64,000 nucleotides of DNA from IMG/VR virus record IMGVR_UViG_2933660794_000001, positions 24,816 to 88,815 of that record; one strand, 5' to 3'. Source of the stretch: a virus (lineage: Duplodnaviria > Caudoviricetes). Positions 38,228 to 43,787 of the stretch are shown here, piece after piece. The translations under genes and the position numbers were made by a program. Under the pieces are notes generated by a model. The model was not told the DNA's origin and did not search any database. It saw only the letters and a program-made list of their open reading frames with translations. Positions within the stretch are counted from its first letter, which is position 1. The number at the start of each line of letters is the position of its first letter.

Positions 38228-38637
38228 TGCCGAAGCGAGTCCAGCGAAAGCGGACGGCCGGATGGACGGCTCCGCTCGACGCCCAGGGCCGAAAGCCCAT
38301 CTACGTTGGCCGCGGCACCCGCTACGGCAACCCCTGGGCCGTCATCCACCTCACCACCGGCACCGGCTGGGCAGTCCAGTGGGCAGGCCACCGCGACCAA
38401 CACCGCCCCCTCGGCCTCAAGGACCTCGTCCCCGCCAACGATCAGCGCGACGCCCACGCCCTCGCGGTCGAGCTGTACGAGAACTGGGTGCACGCCCATC
38501 CGACGCTCCTGGACCGGATCTGCCGCGATCTCGCCGGCCGCGACCTCATGTGCTGGTGCGCCGAGTCGCTCCCGTGCCATGTGGACGCCCTGCTGCGTAT
38601 CGCCAACCCTGAGAGGACCGCCCAGTGCGAGCCCTGA
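38227..38637 (+). CDS. DUF4326 domain protein
   Basis: IYVGRGTRYGNPW and LAGRDLMCWC...PCHVDALL signatures. Confidence 0.88.
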   Translation: MPKRVQRKRTAGWTAPLDAQGRKPIYVGRGTRYGNPWAVIHLTTGTGWAVQWAGHRDQHRPLGLKDLVPANDQRDAHALAVELYENWVHAHPTLLDRICRDLAGRDLMCWCAESLPCHVDALLRIANPERTAQCEP

Positions 38638-39083
38638 CCGTGAAACATCCGTGGGCCGCGGCCATCGCCCATGGCCCGAAGCGCATCGAAAACCGCTCCC
38701 GCCCCATCCCCGCCAAGCACGTTGGCAGCACGATCCTCATCCACGCCGGCCAGGCCGAGGACGTCAACGCGCTCCCCGCCGACATGATCCGTGACTGGCC
38801 CCATCACTGGGGTGCGATCGTCGCCGTCGCCACCCTCACCAGCTGCCACCAGGCGGCCAAGCCGCGCTGCTGCGCACCGTGGGGGTTCCCCGACACCTGG
38901 CACTGGCAGCTCACCAACGTCCGCGCCGTCACCCACCCGATCCTCGGCGTCCGAGGCCAACTCGGACTGTGGACCGTCCCCAACGACGTCCTCAACAAGG
39001 TGGAGCAGGCCTGCCACGACCTCCCCTACGAAGACGCACGTCGGATCCTCACCGCCCTTGAGGACAAGGAGCGCCGCCAGTGA
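38625..39083 (+). CDS. ASCH/PUA domain protein
   Basis: RALTVKHPWAAAIAHGPKRIENRS, ILIHAG, RGQLGLW. Confidence 0.88.
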   Translation: MRALTVKHPWAAAIAHGPKRIENRSRPIPAKHVGSTILIHAGQAEDVNALPADMIRDWPHHWGAIVAVATLTSCHQAAKPRCCAPWGFPDTWHWQLTNVRAVTHPILGVRGQLGLWTVPNDVLNKVEQACHDLPYEDARRILTALEDKERRQ

Positions 39084-39463
39084 CCGACTACCGGGAGAGC
39101 CAGGTGGACGCCGCCCTGGCCGACTACTTCGCCAAGAGGCAGGCGGCCCGCGCCGAGCGAGTGCGCGCCTTCCTCGACAGCCTCACCCCCCGCGAACGCG
39201 CCCTCGTCCAGGACGTTGCCGTCATGGGCTACGTTCGCGGCAGCATGCACCCGCGAGGCGAAGAGATCCCCCTCAACGCCGACATCCTTGCCGACGTCAT
39301 CAACGCCTGCTTCGTCTACCCCGACCTGTACCCGGCCGTCGCCACCATCGAGCGCTGCCCCAACCTGCGCACCGTCCCAGCAGACCCGCCCCGGCACCAA
39401 GGAGGCGTCCGGTGCGGCTGCGCCGACGACCCCGAGGACGACAACGACAGGACCGGCCTGTGA
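39080..39463 (+). CDS. Hypothetical phage protein
   Basis: 127 aa, GTGA coupling, AAGGAG RBS. Confidence 0.65.
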   Translation: MTDYRESQVDAALADYFAKRQAARAERVRAFLDSLTPRERALVQDVAVMGYVRGSMHPRGEEIPLNADILADVINACFVYPDLYPAVATIERCPNLRTVPADPPRHQGGVRCGCADDPEDDNDRTGL

Positions 39464-39612
39464 CCGACCTGCGGCCTGAGTTCATCGAACACGCCAGCAC
39501 CGACGCCATCCGCACCCAATACGAACGCGCCCAAGCCCAAGCCGACCTGTGGGCCGACCGCACCCGAGACCTGTTTCTGCTGCTCTGCCAACGCACCAAC
39601 GAGGAGGACTGA
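39460..39612 (+). CDS. Small hypothetical protein
   Basis: 50 aa from GTG 39460, coupled to the upstream stop. Confidence 0.5.
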   Translation: MTDLRPEFIEHASTDAIRTQYERAQAQADLWADRTRDLFLLLCQRTNEED

Positions 39613-39614
39613 CT

Positions 39615-40352
39615 GTGCGCATCCACTTCAGTAACGTCGTCCACGAGTGGTGGCCCGATCAGTGCCGCAGGCGGGGGCATCTCCGCGCCTCCGAAGACAC
39701 TCGACCCGTTATGGAGACGTCTTACAGCACAGTCGTTCGACCAGGAACGATCATCGTTTGGTCGGACCGCAAAGCGTACGAGGTCATCCAGATCGCCGAA
39801 CGGCCTCTAGACCTGTGGCCCGCCAACTACCGGGAGAAGTGGCAGGAATACACCGAATGGTGGGCTGAGCAGGTCGTATCAGGCCGCGACATGGGTCCCC
39901 AGCCCGAACAGGCCACCTGGGAGCATCGGCCGTTCGTCCTTGTTATCCGCCCCGCCGACCAGCCCGCTGCCAAGCCGAAGCACTACGCCGTCCGAGCATC
40001 CCGTACCTTCTACGTCCTGCCCGAGCACTACAGCGTGTGCCGTCTGTGCAACGAGATTCCGCCTTGCACGCACGCCACCACCGAAGCCGCTATCGACCAC
40101 GCCATGCAGCAGACTGAGCGGCTCATGGCAATCCAGCCCGGTTGCTGCCTCGGCTGCGGCAACCCCATCACCTCCCGTATGAAGGCTGTCCGCTTCCCTG
40201 GACCGAATCTGTGGCGCCCTGATCTCGGAACAGGCTCGGCGGTCTTTCATGCCCGCCAGGACTGCGCCACGTACGTCAGCTCGTACAAGCAGTTGTGGCG
40301 AGAGAAGGGCCATGCCGAGCTTCAGCCCGAACTGCCGGACGGTGAGGAGTGA
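39615..40352 (+). CDS. Hypothetical protein with Zn-binding motifs
   Basis: GTG 39615 with GAGGAGG RBS; HYSVCRLCNEIPPC and CLGCG...FH...C. Confidence 0.7.
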   Translation: MRIHFSNVVHEWWPDQCRRRGHLRASEDTRPVMETSYSTVVRPGTIIVWSDRKAYEVIQIAERPLDLWPANYREKWQEYTEWWAEQVVSGRDMGPQPEQATWEHRPFVLVIRPADQPAAKPKHYAVRASRTFYVLPEHYSVCRLCNEIPPCTHATTEAAIDHAMQQTERLMAIQPGCCLGCGNPITSRMKAVRFPGPNLWRPDLGTGSAVFHARQDCATYVSSYKQLWREKGHAELQPELPDGEE

Positions 40353-40570
40353 AGAGGCGTTGGGTGTCGCGGCGGGAGATTGTTCGGCGTCTGGAGGCCG
40401 TGGAAGCGCAGCTGGCGCAGCGGACGCCGGCGCCGCTCGACGGCCAGCAGACCATCAGCATCGGCCACATCGGGCACCACGCCTACGAAGGCCCCGGAGC
40501 CTGCCGGGCCGATCTGTTCGGGCAGACCTGCGGGGCGCACCGGGACGAACACAAGCTGATCCAGGACTGA
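40349..40570 (+). CDS. Small hypothetical protein
   Basis: 73 aa, GTGA coupling; H...C...CGAHRDEH. Confidence 0.6.
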   Translation: MKRRWVSRREIVRRLEAVEAQLAQRTPAPLDGQQTISIGHIGHHAYEGPGACRADLFGQTCGAHRDEHKLIQD

Positions 40571-40571
40571 G

Positions 40572-41651
40572 CTACGCCGTCGGCTCCGCACCGGCGGCCG
40601 CGCACTCACCGTCATCGACCAGACGGTCCTGAGACAGCGCGTACTCATAGATCAGCTCCGGCAGAGTTGACGCCCCCCACAACGCCTTCAACGCGGCGAT
40701 CTCCTGCTCCAGCTTGCGCTGCGAAACCCCGATCCTCCGGGCTATCACCTGCTGCGACACTCCCGCTGCGATGTACCGGAGGATCTGCCGCTGCCTGGCC
40801 GACGTCCGTACACCGTCCGGGCCCGACACAGCGTCTACCTCGAGCCGGCCACGCCGTGAGCGCAGCAGGCCCGTCCACGGCTCGCCGTACAGCCACATCT
40901 GATCGAACATTGCCGCCAGCACAGCGATGACAGCCCGGTCGGTGACATGCCACGCCGCATGTTGAGGGCCGCCGGTGATGTGGTCGGAGATGAAGGCCTG
41001 CTCCCGATCCACGATGATCATTCGTTCGAACTCGCCGGGCAGCGTCCGGTACTGGGCGACGCTGCCCGTGACACGGTTCGCCATCAGGGTTGCGTACTCG
41101 GCGGTCACCGGGTCGTCCCGGACGGTGTCCCGGTAGACCGTCCTCAGGCTCACGCCCCGGTCCAGCGCAGCAGAGTCACGGGTGACAGCCACGTCCAGGA
41201 TCGCCTTGTTCCGGGGGCCGTCGGGCTGCGCGGCGAGGATCTCCGTTTTCGCGCCGGCCACCACGTCCCGGATACGGGAGTTCACCGCGGCCTGGTCGTC
41301 GAGGTACTCGGAGCTGCGTCCGGGGCGGAACGTGGTGGCGGCGTACTGGCTGGCCAGCTCGTTCGTCAGATCCGGCAGAGCAGACATGAAGGCAACGCGC
41401 TGCTTGGCCTCTTCCAGCTGGGAGAACAGGACGTTTTCCAGGGCTCGTTTCGGATTCCGTACCACTGGCTTGCCGGGCCTGTCCGGGTCCTCCTGAATGA
41501 GGCCGAATGAGACGAGTTCACCGTACACGTTCGGATACTCGTCGGTAATACGTTCTGCCTGCACCCAGTCTTGCCGCACATACGCCCCATACAAGCGCTT
41601 CGCACCCGCCGACAAGATTTCCCCATCACCGTGCACGCTACCTATGGCCAA
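40572..41651 (-). CDS. Transcriptional regulator: TrmB-like N-terminus, PLD-like sensor domain, C-terminal LuxR HTH
   Basis: 359 aa; AKTEILAAQP, RGVSLRTVY, RMIIVDREQAFI, FDQMW, then RQRQILRYIAAGVSQQVIARRIGVSQRK. Confidence 0.85.
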   Translation of the reverse strand: MAIGSVHGDGEILSAGAKRLYGAYVRQDWVQAERITDEYPNVYGELVSFGLIQEDPDRPGKPVVRNPKRALENVLFSQLEEAKQRVAFMSALPDLTNELASQYAATTFRPGRSSEYLDDQAAVNSRIRDVVAGAKTEILAAQPDGPRNKAILDVAVTRDSAALDRGVSLRTVYRDTVRDDPVTAEYATLMANRVTGSVAQYRTLPGEFERMIIVDREQAFISDHITGGPQHAAWHVTDRAVIAVLAAMFDQMWLYGEPWTGLLRSRRGRLEVDAVSGPDGVRTSARQRQILRYIAAGVSQQVIARRIGVSQRKLEQEIAALKALWGASTLPELIYEYALSQDRLVDDGECAAAGAEPTA

Positions 41652-41933
41652 GGATCCGACCCTCCGTCAAATACCCTAGATCAAATGCGAGTTCCCGCAC
41701 TGCGCGCACCCGCACCCGCACAACGTTGATAACCAAACAAGCCTACGGCACCGTATGACCGGGGCGTCCCCCGGCGCTCGTACTCCGCATCCTCCCCAAA
41801 AGCCACACGCGTCTACTGCTGCCAGGAAGACCCGTACAGCCAAGGGGATTTCGCAGCAGGATCGGAACACGAGCAAAAACCGGGACGGCGCCCCGCTATC
41901 GTGTCCGCCACCATTTACAGAAAGGAAACACGC

Positions 41934-42146
41934 GTGCAGAAGCCACTGAAACGACTCATCGCTTCCCTCACACTCGCCACCGCCGTGGCCACCGGCACCC
42001 TCATCGCCACGGAATCCGTCGCCGCACACAAGGCTGACACCACATGGGGAGCATCCGCCACCACCGACGACACCGGCTGGGGCACCCCGCCCGGCGACAT
42101 CCTCCCCATCAACCTCCCCATCCCCCTCGACACCGGCTGGGGCTGA
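41934..42146 (+). CDS. Secreted peptide precursor with three DT(T/G)WG repeats
   Basis: GTG 41934 with AGAAAGGA RBS; 70 aa: Sec-type signal (KPLKR, hydrophobic core, VAA), then ADTTWG, DDTGWG and C-terminal LDTGWG. Confidence 0.8.
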   Translation: MQKPLKRLIASLTLATAVATGTLIATESVAAHKADTTWGASATTDDTGWGTPPGDILPINLPIPLDTGWG

Positions 42147-42161
42147 CCCTCACCGCGTGCC

Positions 42162-42200
42162 CCCTGGTGTCGGCTTGAGGGGAAGCAGCCGGCACCAGGG
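42162..42200 (+). terminator. Hairpin after the peptide gene
   Basis: CCCTGGTGTCGGCT ... AGCCGGCACCAGGG, 15 nt after the stop. Confidence 0.6.
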
Positions 42201-42255
42201 CTCACGCCCCACGGGCCGAGGGAACACCGCGCCAGAACCGCGCCACCGTAGAGGC

Positions 42256-42558
42256 ATGACCGACACGCCCCCGCCCCCGGCCGTCGACTACAGCGGACGC
42301 CCCCTCCACGAAGGCGACACCGTCGCATTCATCAGCGTCGACCCCATCGGACTCAACGAAGGCCGCATCCGCATCATCGGCCCCAACGACCTGTGCATCG
42401 ATACCGGCCAACACCTCGTCACCTTCCCCGCGGCCACACGCCCTCTCCTGGGCCCGGCATTCCATCCTCTCGGCGGCACGGTGAAACCGCGCCCGGTACC
42501 CGAAGGCGCCCAGCAGTACCCGGCCGTCGCCCTCCAGCCGTCCGAGGAAGGTGCCTGA
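42256..42558 (+). CDS. Hypothetical protein
   Basis: ATG 42256, 100 aa; DYSGRPLHEGDTVAF; coupled to the next gene. Confidence 0.55.
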   Translation: MTDTPPPPAVDYSGRPLHEGDTVAFISVDPIGLNEGRIRIIGPNDLCIDTGQHLVTFPAATRPLLGPAFHPLGGTVKPRPVPEGAQQYPAVALQPSEEGA

Positions 42559-42989
42559 TGGCCAAGCACCCGGAAGACGACCGCCGTCAGGCCCTGTGCG
42601 CCTGGCTCACCGCCAACGGCATCGACCCCAATGCCGTCCCCCTGGACGCCGACATGACCATCGACGAAGGCTCCGCAGGACGGTTTCTGCGCTGCGAGGT
42701 CTTCGACCTGGACCAGGACGGACGTAAGCATCTGGACGAGCGGGGAGAGAACGTGGCCCGCCGTACCGTCGCCGTGCCGCTGAAGGTCGAGCCGCCCGAG
42801 TGGTGGCAGCCGTACCAGAAGCCCACCCGCGACCAGCTCCTGGCCAGCGTTCAGGAAGTACGGAAGCTGCACAGACGTAACGAATACACCGGTGACTGCG
42901 AGCACTGCTCCGAACGGGACTACCCGGACTACGCAGTACCGCACCCCTGCCCCACCATCCGTGCCCTCGACGGCAAGGGCGCCGTCTGA
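42558..42989 (+). CDS. Hypothetical phage protein with C-terminal Zn module
   Basis: ATG 42558; WLTANGIDP; LH...CEHC...PCPTIRAL. Confidence 0.65.
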   Translation: MAKHPEDDRRQALCAWLTANGIDPNAVPLDADMTIDEGSAGRFLRCEVFDLDQDGRKHLDERGENVARRTVAVPLKVEPPEWWQPYQKPTRDQLLASVQEVRKLHRRNEYTGDCEHCSERDYPDYAVPHPCPTIRALDGKGAV

Positions 42990-43031
42990 GCGGAGGGAAC
43001 GCGGCCCGGGTTCGTGTCCAGACTGAAGGGC

Positions 43032-43787
43032 ATGCCCACGCCCAAACCCGCACGAACCCGCCGCACCCTCGCCGCCCTGATCGCGGCCGCGCTCACCGTC
43101 CTCGCGCTGCTCCTCGCCTCCGCCACCGACGCCCGAGCCGCCACCACCCCCCTCTACAAGGGCACCGGGTGGAAAGCCGAAACCGCCCAGGGCATCTACA
43201 GCCTCTCCCCCGACCCGTACACAATCGTCTTCGCCAACAGCACCGCGCGGACGAAGCTGACCAAGTACTTCACCGGGCCGGCAGCCCAGGTCACCACCAG
43301 CATCGGCGTGAAGATCACCGTGTCCACGACGATCGACACCACCACCGCAACCTGCCCGTCCCGGCACCGCATCGTCGTCCACTACACCTACCGGCCCATG
43401 GGCACCAAGGGTATGAGCCAAGCCCGGCCCTGCTACGCCATAGCCGACGGCTCCGCGTGGGGCGGCCACCTCTACATGGACAGCGAGTACTGGACCTCGA
43501 GCACCTGGTTCTCCTCGAACGCCACCACGAACGAGGCCCGCCGCAAGGACGCGGTCTCGCACGAGCTGGGTCACATCCTTGGCCTCGACCACCCCAACAC
43601 CGACCTCGACCGGGACGGCGTGGTGGAGAACGGCGAATGCGTCCGCAACTCGGCCGGCCTGCGCCCGCTGCTCTGCAGCCCGAACCGTGGGAACCCGCCC
43701 TCTACGGCTGGCGGGAAGTTCACCACCGAGTTCGACCTGCGCGGCCTGCGGCAGATGCTCGCCAACTACTACCTCCGGCAGCCCTGA
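43032..43787 (+). CDS. Secreted metzincin (matrixin/M10-like) zinc metalloprotease
   Basis: Signal peptide with RTRR and ARA cleavage site; HELGHILGLDH (HExxHxxGxxH); paired cysteines. Confidence 0.85.
   Translation: MPTPKPARTRRTLAALIAAALTVLALLLASATDARAATTPLYKGTGWKAETAQGIYSLSPDPYTIVFANSTARTKLTKYFTGPAAQVTTSIGVKITVSTTIDTTTATCPSRHRIVVHYTYRPMGTKGMSQARPCYAIADGSAWGGHLYMDSEYWTSSTWFSSNATTNEARRKDAVSHELGHILGLDHPNTDLDRDGVVENGECVRNSAGLRPLLCSPNRGNPPSTAGGKFTTEFDLRGLRQMLANYYLRQP

Follow-up and report, generated by a model that had tools for sequence, protein, structure and literature searches.

Gene-encoded peptide signals with cytoplasmic receptors are known, according to the portion of PMC10075063 that surveys them, only from Firmicutes and their phages, where the receptors are always of the tetratricopeptide repeat (TPR) type and belong to the RRNPP family; the known signals of Actinomycetota are presented there as enzyme-made small molecules. 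The RRNPP systems (Rap-Phr, PlcR-PapR, NprR-NprX and Rgg-SHP) consist of two adjacent genes, one for a communication pro-peptide and one for its cognate cytoplasmic receptor, as outlined in the same portion of PMC10075063. The working of the arbitrium system (AimR-AimP-AimX) of Bacillus SPbeta-like phages is taken here from the relevant sections of PMC6536502 and PMC13220667. In our study, a window of 64 kb (the whole stretch of DNA analysed, 64,000 nucleotides, which is part of an 88,815-bp contig in a 9.2-Mb genome of high guanine-plus-cytosine (GC) content) was found to carry a small gene for a repeat-containing peptide precursor, divergent from the gene of a regulator with a ligand-type domain. 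On balance, and with some reserve, this pair is considered to be a two-gene peptide-signalling module of a Streptomyces phage-plasmid whose receptor lies outside the RRNPP family. A wider and more tentative proposal, held with a little less than even confidence, is that the pair belongs to a large family, undescribed so far, in which Actinomycetota use gene-encoded peptides as pheromones, with an exported D-x-x-W core and a cytoplasmic TrmB/PLD-fold-LuxR receptor, and with roles on mobile elements, on chromosomes and through a leader RNA. Full-text literature searches returned no description of such a peptide-regulator system.

The element in the window was read as an 88.8-kb Streptomyces phage-plasmid. 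It is related to circular plasmids of Streptomyces (87-93 kb), among them pSAM1, which is described as bearing a prophage-like sequence in the part of PMC11302927 that concerns it. As in arbitrium, a mobile element carries a small exported pro-peptide gene beside that of a presumed intracellular receptor-regulator, the presumed active part lies at the C-terminus and the motif varies between elements; moreover, the pair is located near the integrase in Streptomyces phage Chymera (NC_073457), a temperate phage that has been cultured and whose host is S. venezuelae ATCC 10712. Unlike AimR, the receptor here is composed of a TrmB-like winged helix-turn-helix (wHTH), a phospholipase D (PLD) fold and a LuxR-type helix-turn-helix (HTH), and not of a TPR/RRNPP protein. 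Further, the precursor is multi-copy, the two genes are divergent or convergent whereas those of arbitrium form one operon, no AimX-like output was identified here, the host phylum is Actinomycetota, and the present pair is known from sequence and models. With the RRNPP systems the pair shares the adjacent pro-peptide and cytoplasmic receptor genes and an expected Opp-dependent re-import. The receptors, however, have no sequence or fold relation to each other, and the D-x-x-W pair is not an RRNPP member because the defining TPR receptor is absent; neither a TPR match in Pfam nor a TPR protein among the best structural and profile matches was found for the regulator. The comparison with arbitrium and Rap-Phr, which a sequence-only reading of the window had put forward, thus stands for the logic of the arrangement and not for the receptor. 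A precedent for an imported extracellular oligopeptide signal in Streptomyces itself is given by the Opp-type BldK permease and the signal BLD261, BldK-mediated uptake of a signal oligopeptide being described in the passage of PMC11303876 on this permease. Any link of the BldK signal to the D-x-x-W family would be speculation.

The peptide precursor gene (41934-42146, plus strand; GTG at 41934, TGA at 42146) encodes 70 amino acids and is preceded by a ribosome-binding site, AAAGGA, at 41921-41926, 7 nt before the GTG, which aligns with an AAAGGA/GAAGGG box in relatives. A signal peptide of about residues 1-31 was predicted by eye, with a K/R-rich n-region, an 18-residue hydrophobic stretch and V-A-A before H32. 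Three motifs follow it: DTTWG at residues 35-39 (42036-42050), DTGWG at residues 46-50 (42069-42083) and again DTGWG at residues 66-70 (42129-42143), the last forming the C-terminus directly before the stop codon. A GC-rich, terminator-like hairpin without a T run (42155-42207, plus strand) lies directly 3' of the stop codon as an inverted repeat with arms at 42155-42175 and 42187-42207, each of 21 nt and 86% complementary, and a comparable hairpin was found 3' of the peptide gene in relatives (z<-2 against shuffles in 13 of 16). The gene has a GC content of 0.83 at codon position 3 and 0.61 at positions 1 and 2, and among 106,633 open reading frames (ORFs; stop to stop, at least 40 amino acids, six frames) of the 9.2-Mb genome it is the only one with at least two D[TS]xWG motifs. 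The peptide and regulator genes are divergent and 282 bp apart (41652-41933), and the CCGCAC units of this intergenic region belong to the two tandem palindromes described below. The gene anatomy given in the sequence-only reading, from the ribosome-binding site and the three repeats to the hairpin and the 282-bp region with its CCGCAC units, is therefore borne out.

A profile search yielded 179 small-protein relatives of the precursor at E<=0.01. None of them has a Pfam domain, and those with names are called 'hypothetical' or 'exported protein of unknown function', except for one stray JGI label (P0048); the relatives in three RefSeq plasmids and in phage Chymera are annotated as coding sequences (CDS). 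In the 123 precursor sequences compared (120 listed matches plus three translations), D-T-x-W-G was found to be the C-terminal end in every case, with three WG units in 86 precursors, two in 36 and four in one. The alignment of 36 precursors has 12 invariant columns, all of them in the three motifs plus P53, and the spacers vary in both length and sequence. The ESM Atlas model of the window precursor is disordered (predicted local distance difference test (pLDDT) 0.38), and the clusters nearest to it consist of actinobacterial secreted proteins without a name. A tblastn search of plasmids with the 70-residue peptide gave no match, which is attributed to the short, filtered query because the profile search and direct reading of the loci did find relatives. 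Across the family, the core of 4-5 residues occurs from 1 to about 10 times per precursor, and its final copy stands at or near the C-terminus.

The regulator gene (40572-41651, minus strand) encodes 359 amino acids from a TTG start codon preceded by GGAGGG, and was characterised by ORF, Pfam, AlphaFold2, profile and fold searches. Its domains are a TrmB-like winged helix (residues 15-64), a long helix of 40 residues (67-107), an alpha/beta PLD-fold domain (114-259) and a LuxR/GerE-type HTH (285-344). The AlphaFold2 model, built with 41 homologues, has a pLDDT of 88.4 and shows a low-confidence linker after residue 259, which is followed by five helices matching NarL/GerE. The Pfam matches to GerE (PF00196, 20.5 bits) and Regulator_TrmB (18.0 bits) remained under their cut-offs of 23.5 and 22.2, and NCBIfam and PHROGs gave nothing beyond the HTH, the NCBIfam HTH matches being far under cut-offs. 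In the profile search against the Protein Data Bank with the 41 homologues, TrmBL2 was matched at E 6e-10 over profile positions 30-251, and the C-terminus matched NarL (E 1.5e-9) and GerE (E 1.4e-7). Foldseek placed TrmBL2 first (1.4e-10), then TrmB (3qph, 2e-8; 2f5t, 1.8e-6) and then PLD-type proteins (NucT, Nuc and PLD3, E 3e-6 to 1e-3); the identity of the regulator to the solved TrmB-type structures is 12-19%. The composition proposed from the letters alone, a wHTH, a PLD-like domain without HxK and a LuxR HTH, is thus agreed upon by model, profile and fold searches.

With archaeal TrmB/TrmBL2 the regulator shares the N-terminal winged helix, the long dimerisation-type helix and the PLD fold that makes up the first half of the effector domain. 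In contrast to archaeal TrmB, the sugar-binding C-terminal subdomain is absent from the model and a LuxR-type HTH takes its place, and the Pfam score stays under the cut-off. The C-terminal four-helix HTH of GerE/NarL type is common to the LuxR family, comprising the receptors of acyl-homoserine lactones (AHLs) and the 'solos'; unlike the AHL receptors, the regulator has no autoinducer-binding domain in Pfam at E<=1, its input domain is TrmB/PLD-like, and its presumed ligand is a gene-encoded peptide. The fold is also that of phospholipase D/Nuc enzymes, but their catalytic motif HxK(x)4D is not found in the regulator: HxK is absent from residues 111-262, where the histidines read HIT, HAA and HVT. 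The PLD-fold residues R165, R178, R202, Y173 and W253 are invariant, and an N-terminal 'LAI..LS..A..LY' is common to the homologues. According to the model, the only input domain of the regulator is of ligand type and related to the sugar-binding domain of TrmB. On the other side of the regulator gene, a rightward gene block (38625-40570) stops one base from the regulator stop codon, and read-through from this block would run antisense to the regulator gene.

The association of the two genes was followed in regulator homologues of the close clade (40-82% identity), drawn from plasmids, species genomes, viral contigs and metagenomes. All 27 distinct pairs, the window included, have a divergent exported peptide ending in D-[TS]-x-W-G at 258-334 bp upstream; four further metagenome loci end inside or before the peptide gene, and in three of these the start of a signal peptide is visible. 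In a family-level sample, 36 of 400 other Streptomycetaceae genomes have a regulator homologue at E<=1e-30, and 25 of the 29 distant loci returned have an adjacent exported small ORF with 1-3 copies of D-x-x-W, the last at the C-terminus; exported ORFs in loci other than the window were picked with a crude script and not with SignalP. The motifs seen in these distant loci include DSGWN, DSAWN, DTGWN, DSAWD, DSTWG, DIGWG, DTTW, DSVW, DLIWT, DVIWT, DWGW and DSHW. One clade has a convergent arrangement, with 0-31 bp between the peptide gene and the 3' end of the regulator gene; the others have the divergent one. Searching in the opposite direction, with the peptide first, gave matches in eleven other genomes; ten were real D-x-x-W-repeat peptides, and in eight of these ten a regulator lies within 1.5 kb. 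The regulator-peptide pair was found on chromosomes, on plasmids and in one cultured temperate phage. In pSAM1 the two genes are those at L002:2501-2728 and L002:3037-4104, with DTAWG as the peptide motif.

In phage Chymera the pair consists of gp30 (L126:1574-1753, minus strand), a 59-residue exported peptide of the form ...TAQA|DPGWG...NDPGWG*, and the divergent regulator gp29 (L126:1899-2849, plus strand), two genes from a tyrosine integrase. In gp30 the mature part would begin with one DPGWG, directly behind the predicted cleavage site of the signal peptide, and a second DPGWG forms the C-terminus. The chromosome of the window genome itself bears a second pair (L006), with a peptide ending in DSVWD. 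Two chromosomal precursors (L095, plus strand, ORF end 2983; L097, plus strand, ORF end 2956) are polyprotein-like, with about ten tandem DSTW[VSAT]-(A/V)P units, and their orthologous loci in other species have a single C-terminal copy (DSVWD, DSKWD, DTRWD or DTVWD). Other multi-copy precursors carry four DSGWG, five DPGWG or four DTHWG, and in a rarer variant (L014, L059 and L082) the third residue is Trp (DTWWG, after an upstream DDTWQG or DDTWWG). Chromosomal regulators often occur in clusters of 2-4 paralogues with one peptide gene, as on contig C5 of the window genome at 180987-183056 (L006/L007) and in G103, G037, G011 and G046, which suggests either several receptors per signal or decayed copies.

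The intergenic region was found to be organised around a candidate operator, two tandem palindromes TGCG-N6-CGCA at 41686-41699 and 41701-41714, which form a direct repeat and are conserved in 16 aligned intergenic regions. It precedes the regulator start by 35-65 bp. On its other side, 12 bp downstream, stands TTGA(TA) at 41726-41731 (plus strand), a -35-like box ascribed to the peptide promoter; this box is conserved in 16 of 16 and 25 of 25 aligned regions and is followed by a conserved TAnGGCA..T. These alignments comprised 16 and later 25 relatives, in which the flanking proteins are only 40-70% identical. The promoter role of the TTGA box is proposed from its conservation because a sigma-70 consensus scan of 41400-42400 gave no full promoter. 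The position of the operator, upstream of the -35-like box and close to the regulator start, suggests activation of the peptide gene together with autoregulation.

Between this box and the peptide gene, a structured 5' leader of about 145 nt was assigned to the peptide mRNA (41756-41899, plus strand); it contains long invariant stretches and was delineated with RNAalifold and a covariance model. Its closing helix pairs GGGGCGUC with GRCGCCCC, and inner helices are formed by CUCGU/ACGAG and UCCC/GGGA. RNAalifold gave 21 pairs, with 96.6% of cells paired against 41-59% in slid controls, and compensatory change was observed at 4 pairs, a result equalled by 1 of 500 shuffles. The G-U pairs fit the plus strand only, so the leader belongs to the peptide mRNA. 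The covariance model found the leader in seven close-clade loci on which it had not been trained, plus one cut at a contig end; it had no match in the distant loci searched and occurs once only in the window. Rfam holds no family for the leader and no credible family for the hairpin. A link of the invariant leader heptamer CTGCCAG to a CTGCCAG array at 25.6-26.2 kb was rejected, as CTGCCAG is widespread (46 copies on the plasmid and 19 per 100 kb elsewhere) and longer words taken from the leader are unique.

A mechanism consistent with these observations can be outlined as follows. The precursor would be exported and its signal peptide removed, and extracellular proteolysis would free short D-T-x-W-G peptides, three copies per precursor, of which the last would need one cut only. 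The peptide would build up with the density of element-carrying cells, be taken up through a host oligopeptide permease of Opp/BldK type and bind the PLD-fold domain of the adjoining regulator. The regulator, which is probably a dimer through its long helix, would occupy the tandem TGCG-N6-CGCA site upstream of the peptide promoter, and peptide binding may alter the occupancy of this tandem palindrome. Since the regulator would control the peptide gene as well as its own divergent gene, a feedback loop would result, with the structured leader of about 145 nt as a probable second, post-transcriptional control on the peptide mRNA. In recognition, the invariant Asp and Trp of the peptide may form a conserved anchor with Arg and aromatic residues of the PLD fold, and the adjacent variable positions may set the specificity.

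Motif diversity is in line with such specificity. A quick IQ-TREE tree was made of 62 pairs, among which related sequences do not count as independent. In it, eight nearly identical regulators from chromosomes (end branches 0.015-0.2) were found to pair with seven terminal motifs (DSTWG, DSTWV, DSIWS, DSVWD, DSKWD, DTRWD and DTVWD). The signal peptides stay alike across chromosomal pairs with differing motifs. Judged by sequence comparison, this turnover beside near-identical regulators resembles pherotypes. In the phage-plasmid clade, the DTTWG-type regulators form one clade and 12 columns separate T-type from A/G-type regulators, and in the chromosomal clade 11 columns separate DSTW-type regulators from the rest; columns 151 and 154 are common to both sets (overlap p about 0.05, post hoc). 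Further, K154 is unique to the two DTWWG regulators L014 and L059 (the regulator of L082 is truncated and outside that comparison), and S147 and A155 are found in no regulators but the two whose peptides carry K or R as the third residue. These positions, 147-155, come after a near-invariant AQPGGPR motif. Their tracking of the third peptide residue is a hint that the PLD-fold domain may read the peptide.

Several results weigh against the signalling reading, and the output is its weakest point. The tandem operator occurs once in the 9.2-Mb genome, at the pair itself, and no further operator was found through which the pair might steer a choice between plasmid state, conjugation and lysis, as put forward in the sequence-only reading. 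Single TGCG-N6-CGCA sites on the plasmid (5 observed, 3.7 expected) are near expectation, and no regulon of further regulator targets was found. A conserved downstream 'output' gene was also rejected: beyond the peptide hairpin lie two small genes of no known family (42256-42558 and 42393-42989, plus strand), and relatives of 42393-42989 follow the peptide in 15 of 28 loci, those of 42256-42558 in 8 of 28, and some relatives have neither. It may be speculated that the second DNA-binding domain or the leader RNA carries the output. No dedicated protease, exporter or importer linked to the pair was found in the loci compared; the host genome has 13 Opp/Dpp-type binding proteins (SBP_bac_5), from which it follows that an uptake route exists, and nothing more. 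In the wider regulator family, which is present at E<=1e-25 in 146 of 401 Actinomycetes genomes (three of the genomes, G423, G650 and G689, are marked unpublished and enter into this tally only) and often as tandem paralogues, a D-x-x-W peptide was found within 1.5 kb in only 9 of 29 best-hit loci, a count that may miss genes further off. The earlier prediction that regulator homologues have a neighbouring peptide gene is thus upheld for sub-clades by the 27 of 27, 25 of 29 and 8 of 10 loci given above, and does not extend to every member of the regulator family.

The pattern of variation in the regulator adds to these points. Mean entropy is lowest in the PLD-fold domain in two of four clades; in the remaining two only the LuxR HTH has a lower value. 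The highest mean entropy falls to the wHTH and long helix in three of four. As the PLD fold belongs to those parts of the regulator that vary least, broad sensor-peptide co-variation, which had been proposed as a check, is not seen, and what came out of that check is the weak post hoc lead at 147-155, with few and phylogenetically non-independent contrasts. At the third motif position A and G swap repeatedly and coexist in single precursors, which suggests that this position may not be discriminated. Moreover, residues 1-110 of the regulator (41322-41651) are variable while the LuxR HTH and the operator are conserved, and the N-terminal 'DNA-binding' domain may therefore have another role.

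These points lend some weight to a different explanation, which is considered rather unlikely, namely that the regulator controls the peptide without sensing it. The peptide would then be the output, a public good, a weapon against competitors or other phages, or a surface-active or metal-binding product, and the TrmB-like domain would sense some other small ligand, e.g. a sugar. The closest solved relatives of the regulator bind sugars (TrmB) or no ligand (TrmBL2), the PLD fold is among the least variable parts while the peptides diversify, the peptide promoter is the sole recognisable target of the regulator, and uptake or processing genes linked to the pair are lacking. However, copies of a short motif set among disordered, freely varying spacers, the final one at the C-terminus, are the mark of a processed signal and not of a folded effector. 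That the motif turns over fast between orthologous loci while a single adjacent regulator is strictly kept, whichever way the two genes face, is difficult to account for unless there is recognition, and the sugar-binding C-terminal subdomain of TrmB has been replaced by the LuxR HTH.

If the peptide is a signal, it might also be sensed outside the cell by an unlinked membrane receptor, with the adjacent regulator driving only its production. Other Gram-positive peptide systems use membrane kinases, and an importer linked to the pair is missing, but the loci examined have no conserved kinase or membrane-sensor gene next to the pair, a ligand-type domain is retained in the regulator, and the weak co-variation at positions 147-155 speaks for the regulator as receptor; this arrangement is considered improbable. 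Still less probable is the reading of the small protein as the precursor of a RiPP (a natural product synthesised by the ribosome and then modified, for example on Trp), with the regulator as the pathway-specific activator. Some multi-core RiPP precursors do have repeated cores with an invariant Trp, and LuxR-type activators often adjoin biosynthetic genes; the present precursor, however, bears a predicted secretion signal and not a leader for cytoplasmic enzymes, and no modifying enzyme is conserved alongside, the neighbours differing between relatives. High-GC DNA yields many spurious ORFs, but that the peptide ORF is one of them, its conservation reflecting only the DNA or RNA upstream of the regulator, is scarcely credible given 179 relatives in which frame, signal peptide and terminal motif are kept and the spacers differ in length as well as sequence, the GC of 0.83 at codon position 3, the CDS annotation in three RefSeq plasmids and Chymera, and the uniqueness of the gene among 106,633 ORFs.

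If the signalling reading of the D-x-x-W pair is true, a peptide-receptor signalling logic has evolved independently, and from unrelated parts, in Streptomyces, and 'arbitrium-like' phage decisions would reach actinophages and phage-plasmids. Temperate phages such as Chymera, phage-plasmids and plasmids would then use the pair to gauge how dense they are and to adjust lysogeny, induction or transfer. The chromosomal pairs, with motifs diversified like pherotypes, could supply oligopeptide signals imported by Opp/BldK in Streptomyces development, and the phage-plasmid clade would have added a new structured leader RNA as a second control layer. Such a peptide-receptor pair would also provide a concrete, synthesisable ligand family for gene switching in antibiotic producers. 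Because short linear peptides can be bought, this reading is directly testable, and Chymera on S. venezuelae ATCC 10712, pSAM1 in S. ambofaciens ATCC 23877 and the plasmid of the window are tractable systems for this purpose.

In the near-identity DNA search of the window, no phage record was matched and only small pieces of four Streptomyces plasmids were returned. Further downstream of the peptide gene, at 43014-43787 (plus strand), a secreted M12/metzincin-like protease with the sequence HELGHILGLDH is encoded, and a paralogue of 48% identity is found on the chromosome (contig C1). Among the loci compared, whose flanks are short, an M12-like protease lies near the peptide gene only in L018, L002/L052 and L019. 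This protease was rejected as a part of the module on account of its occurrence near the peptide in these three other elements only and of its chromosomal paralogue.

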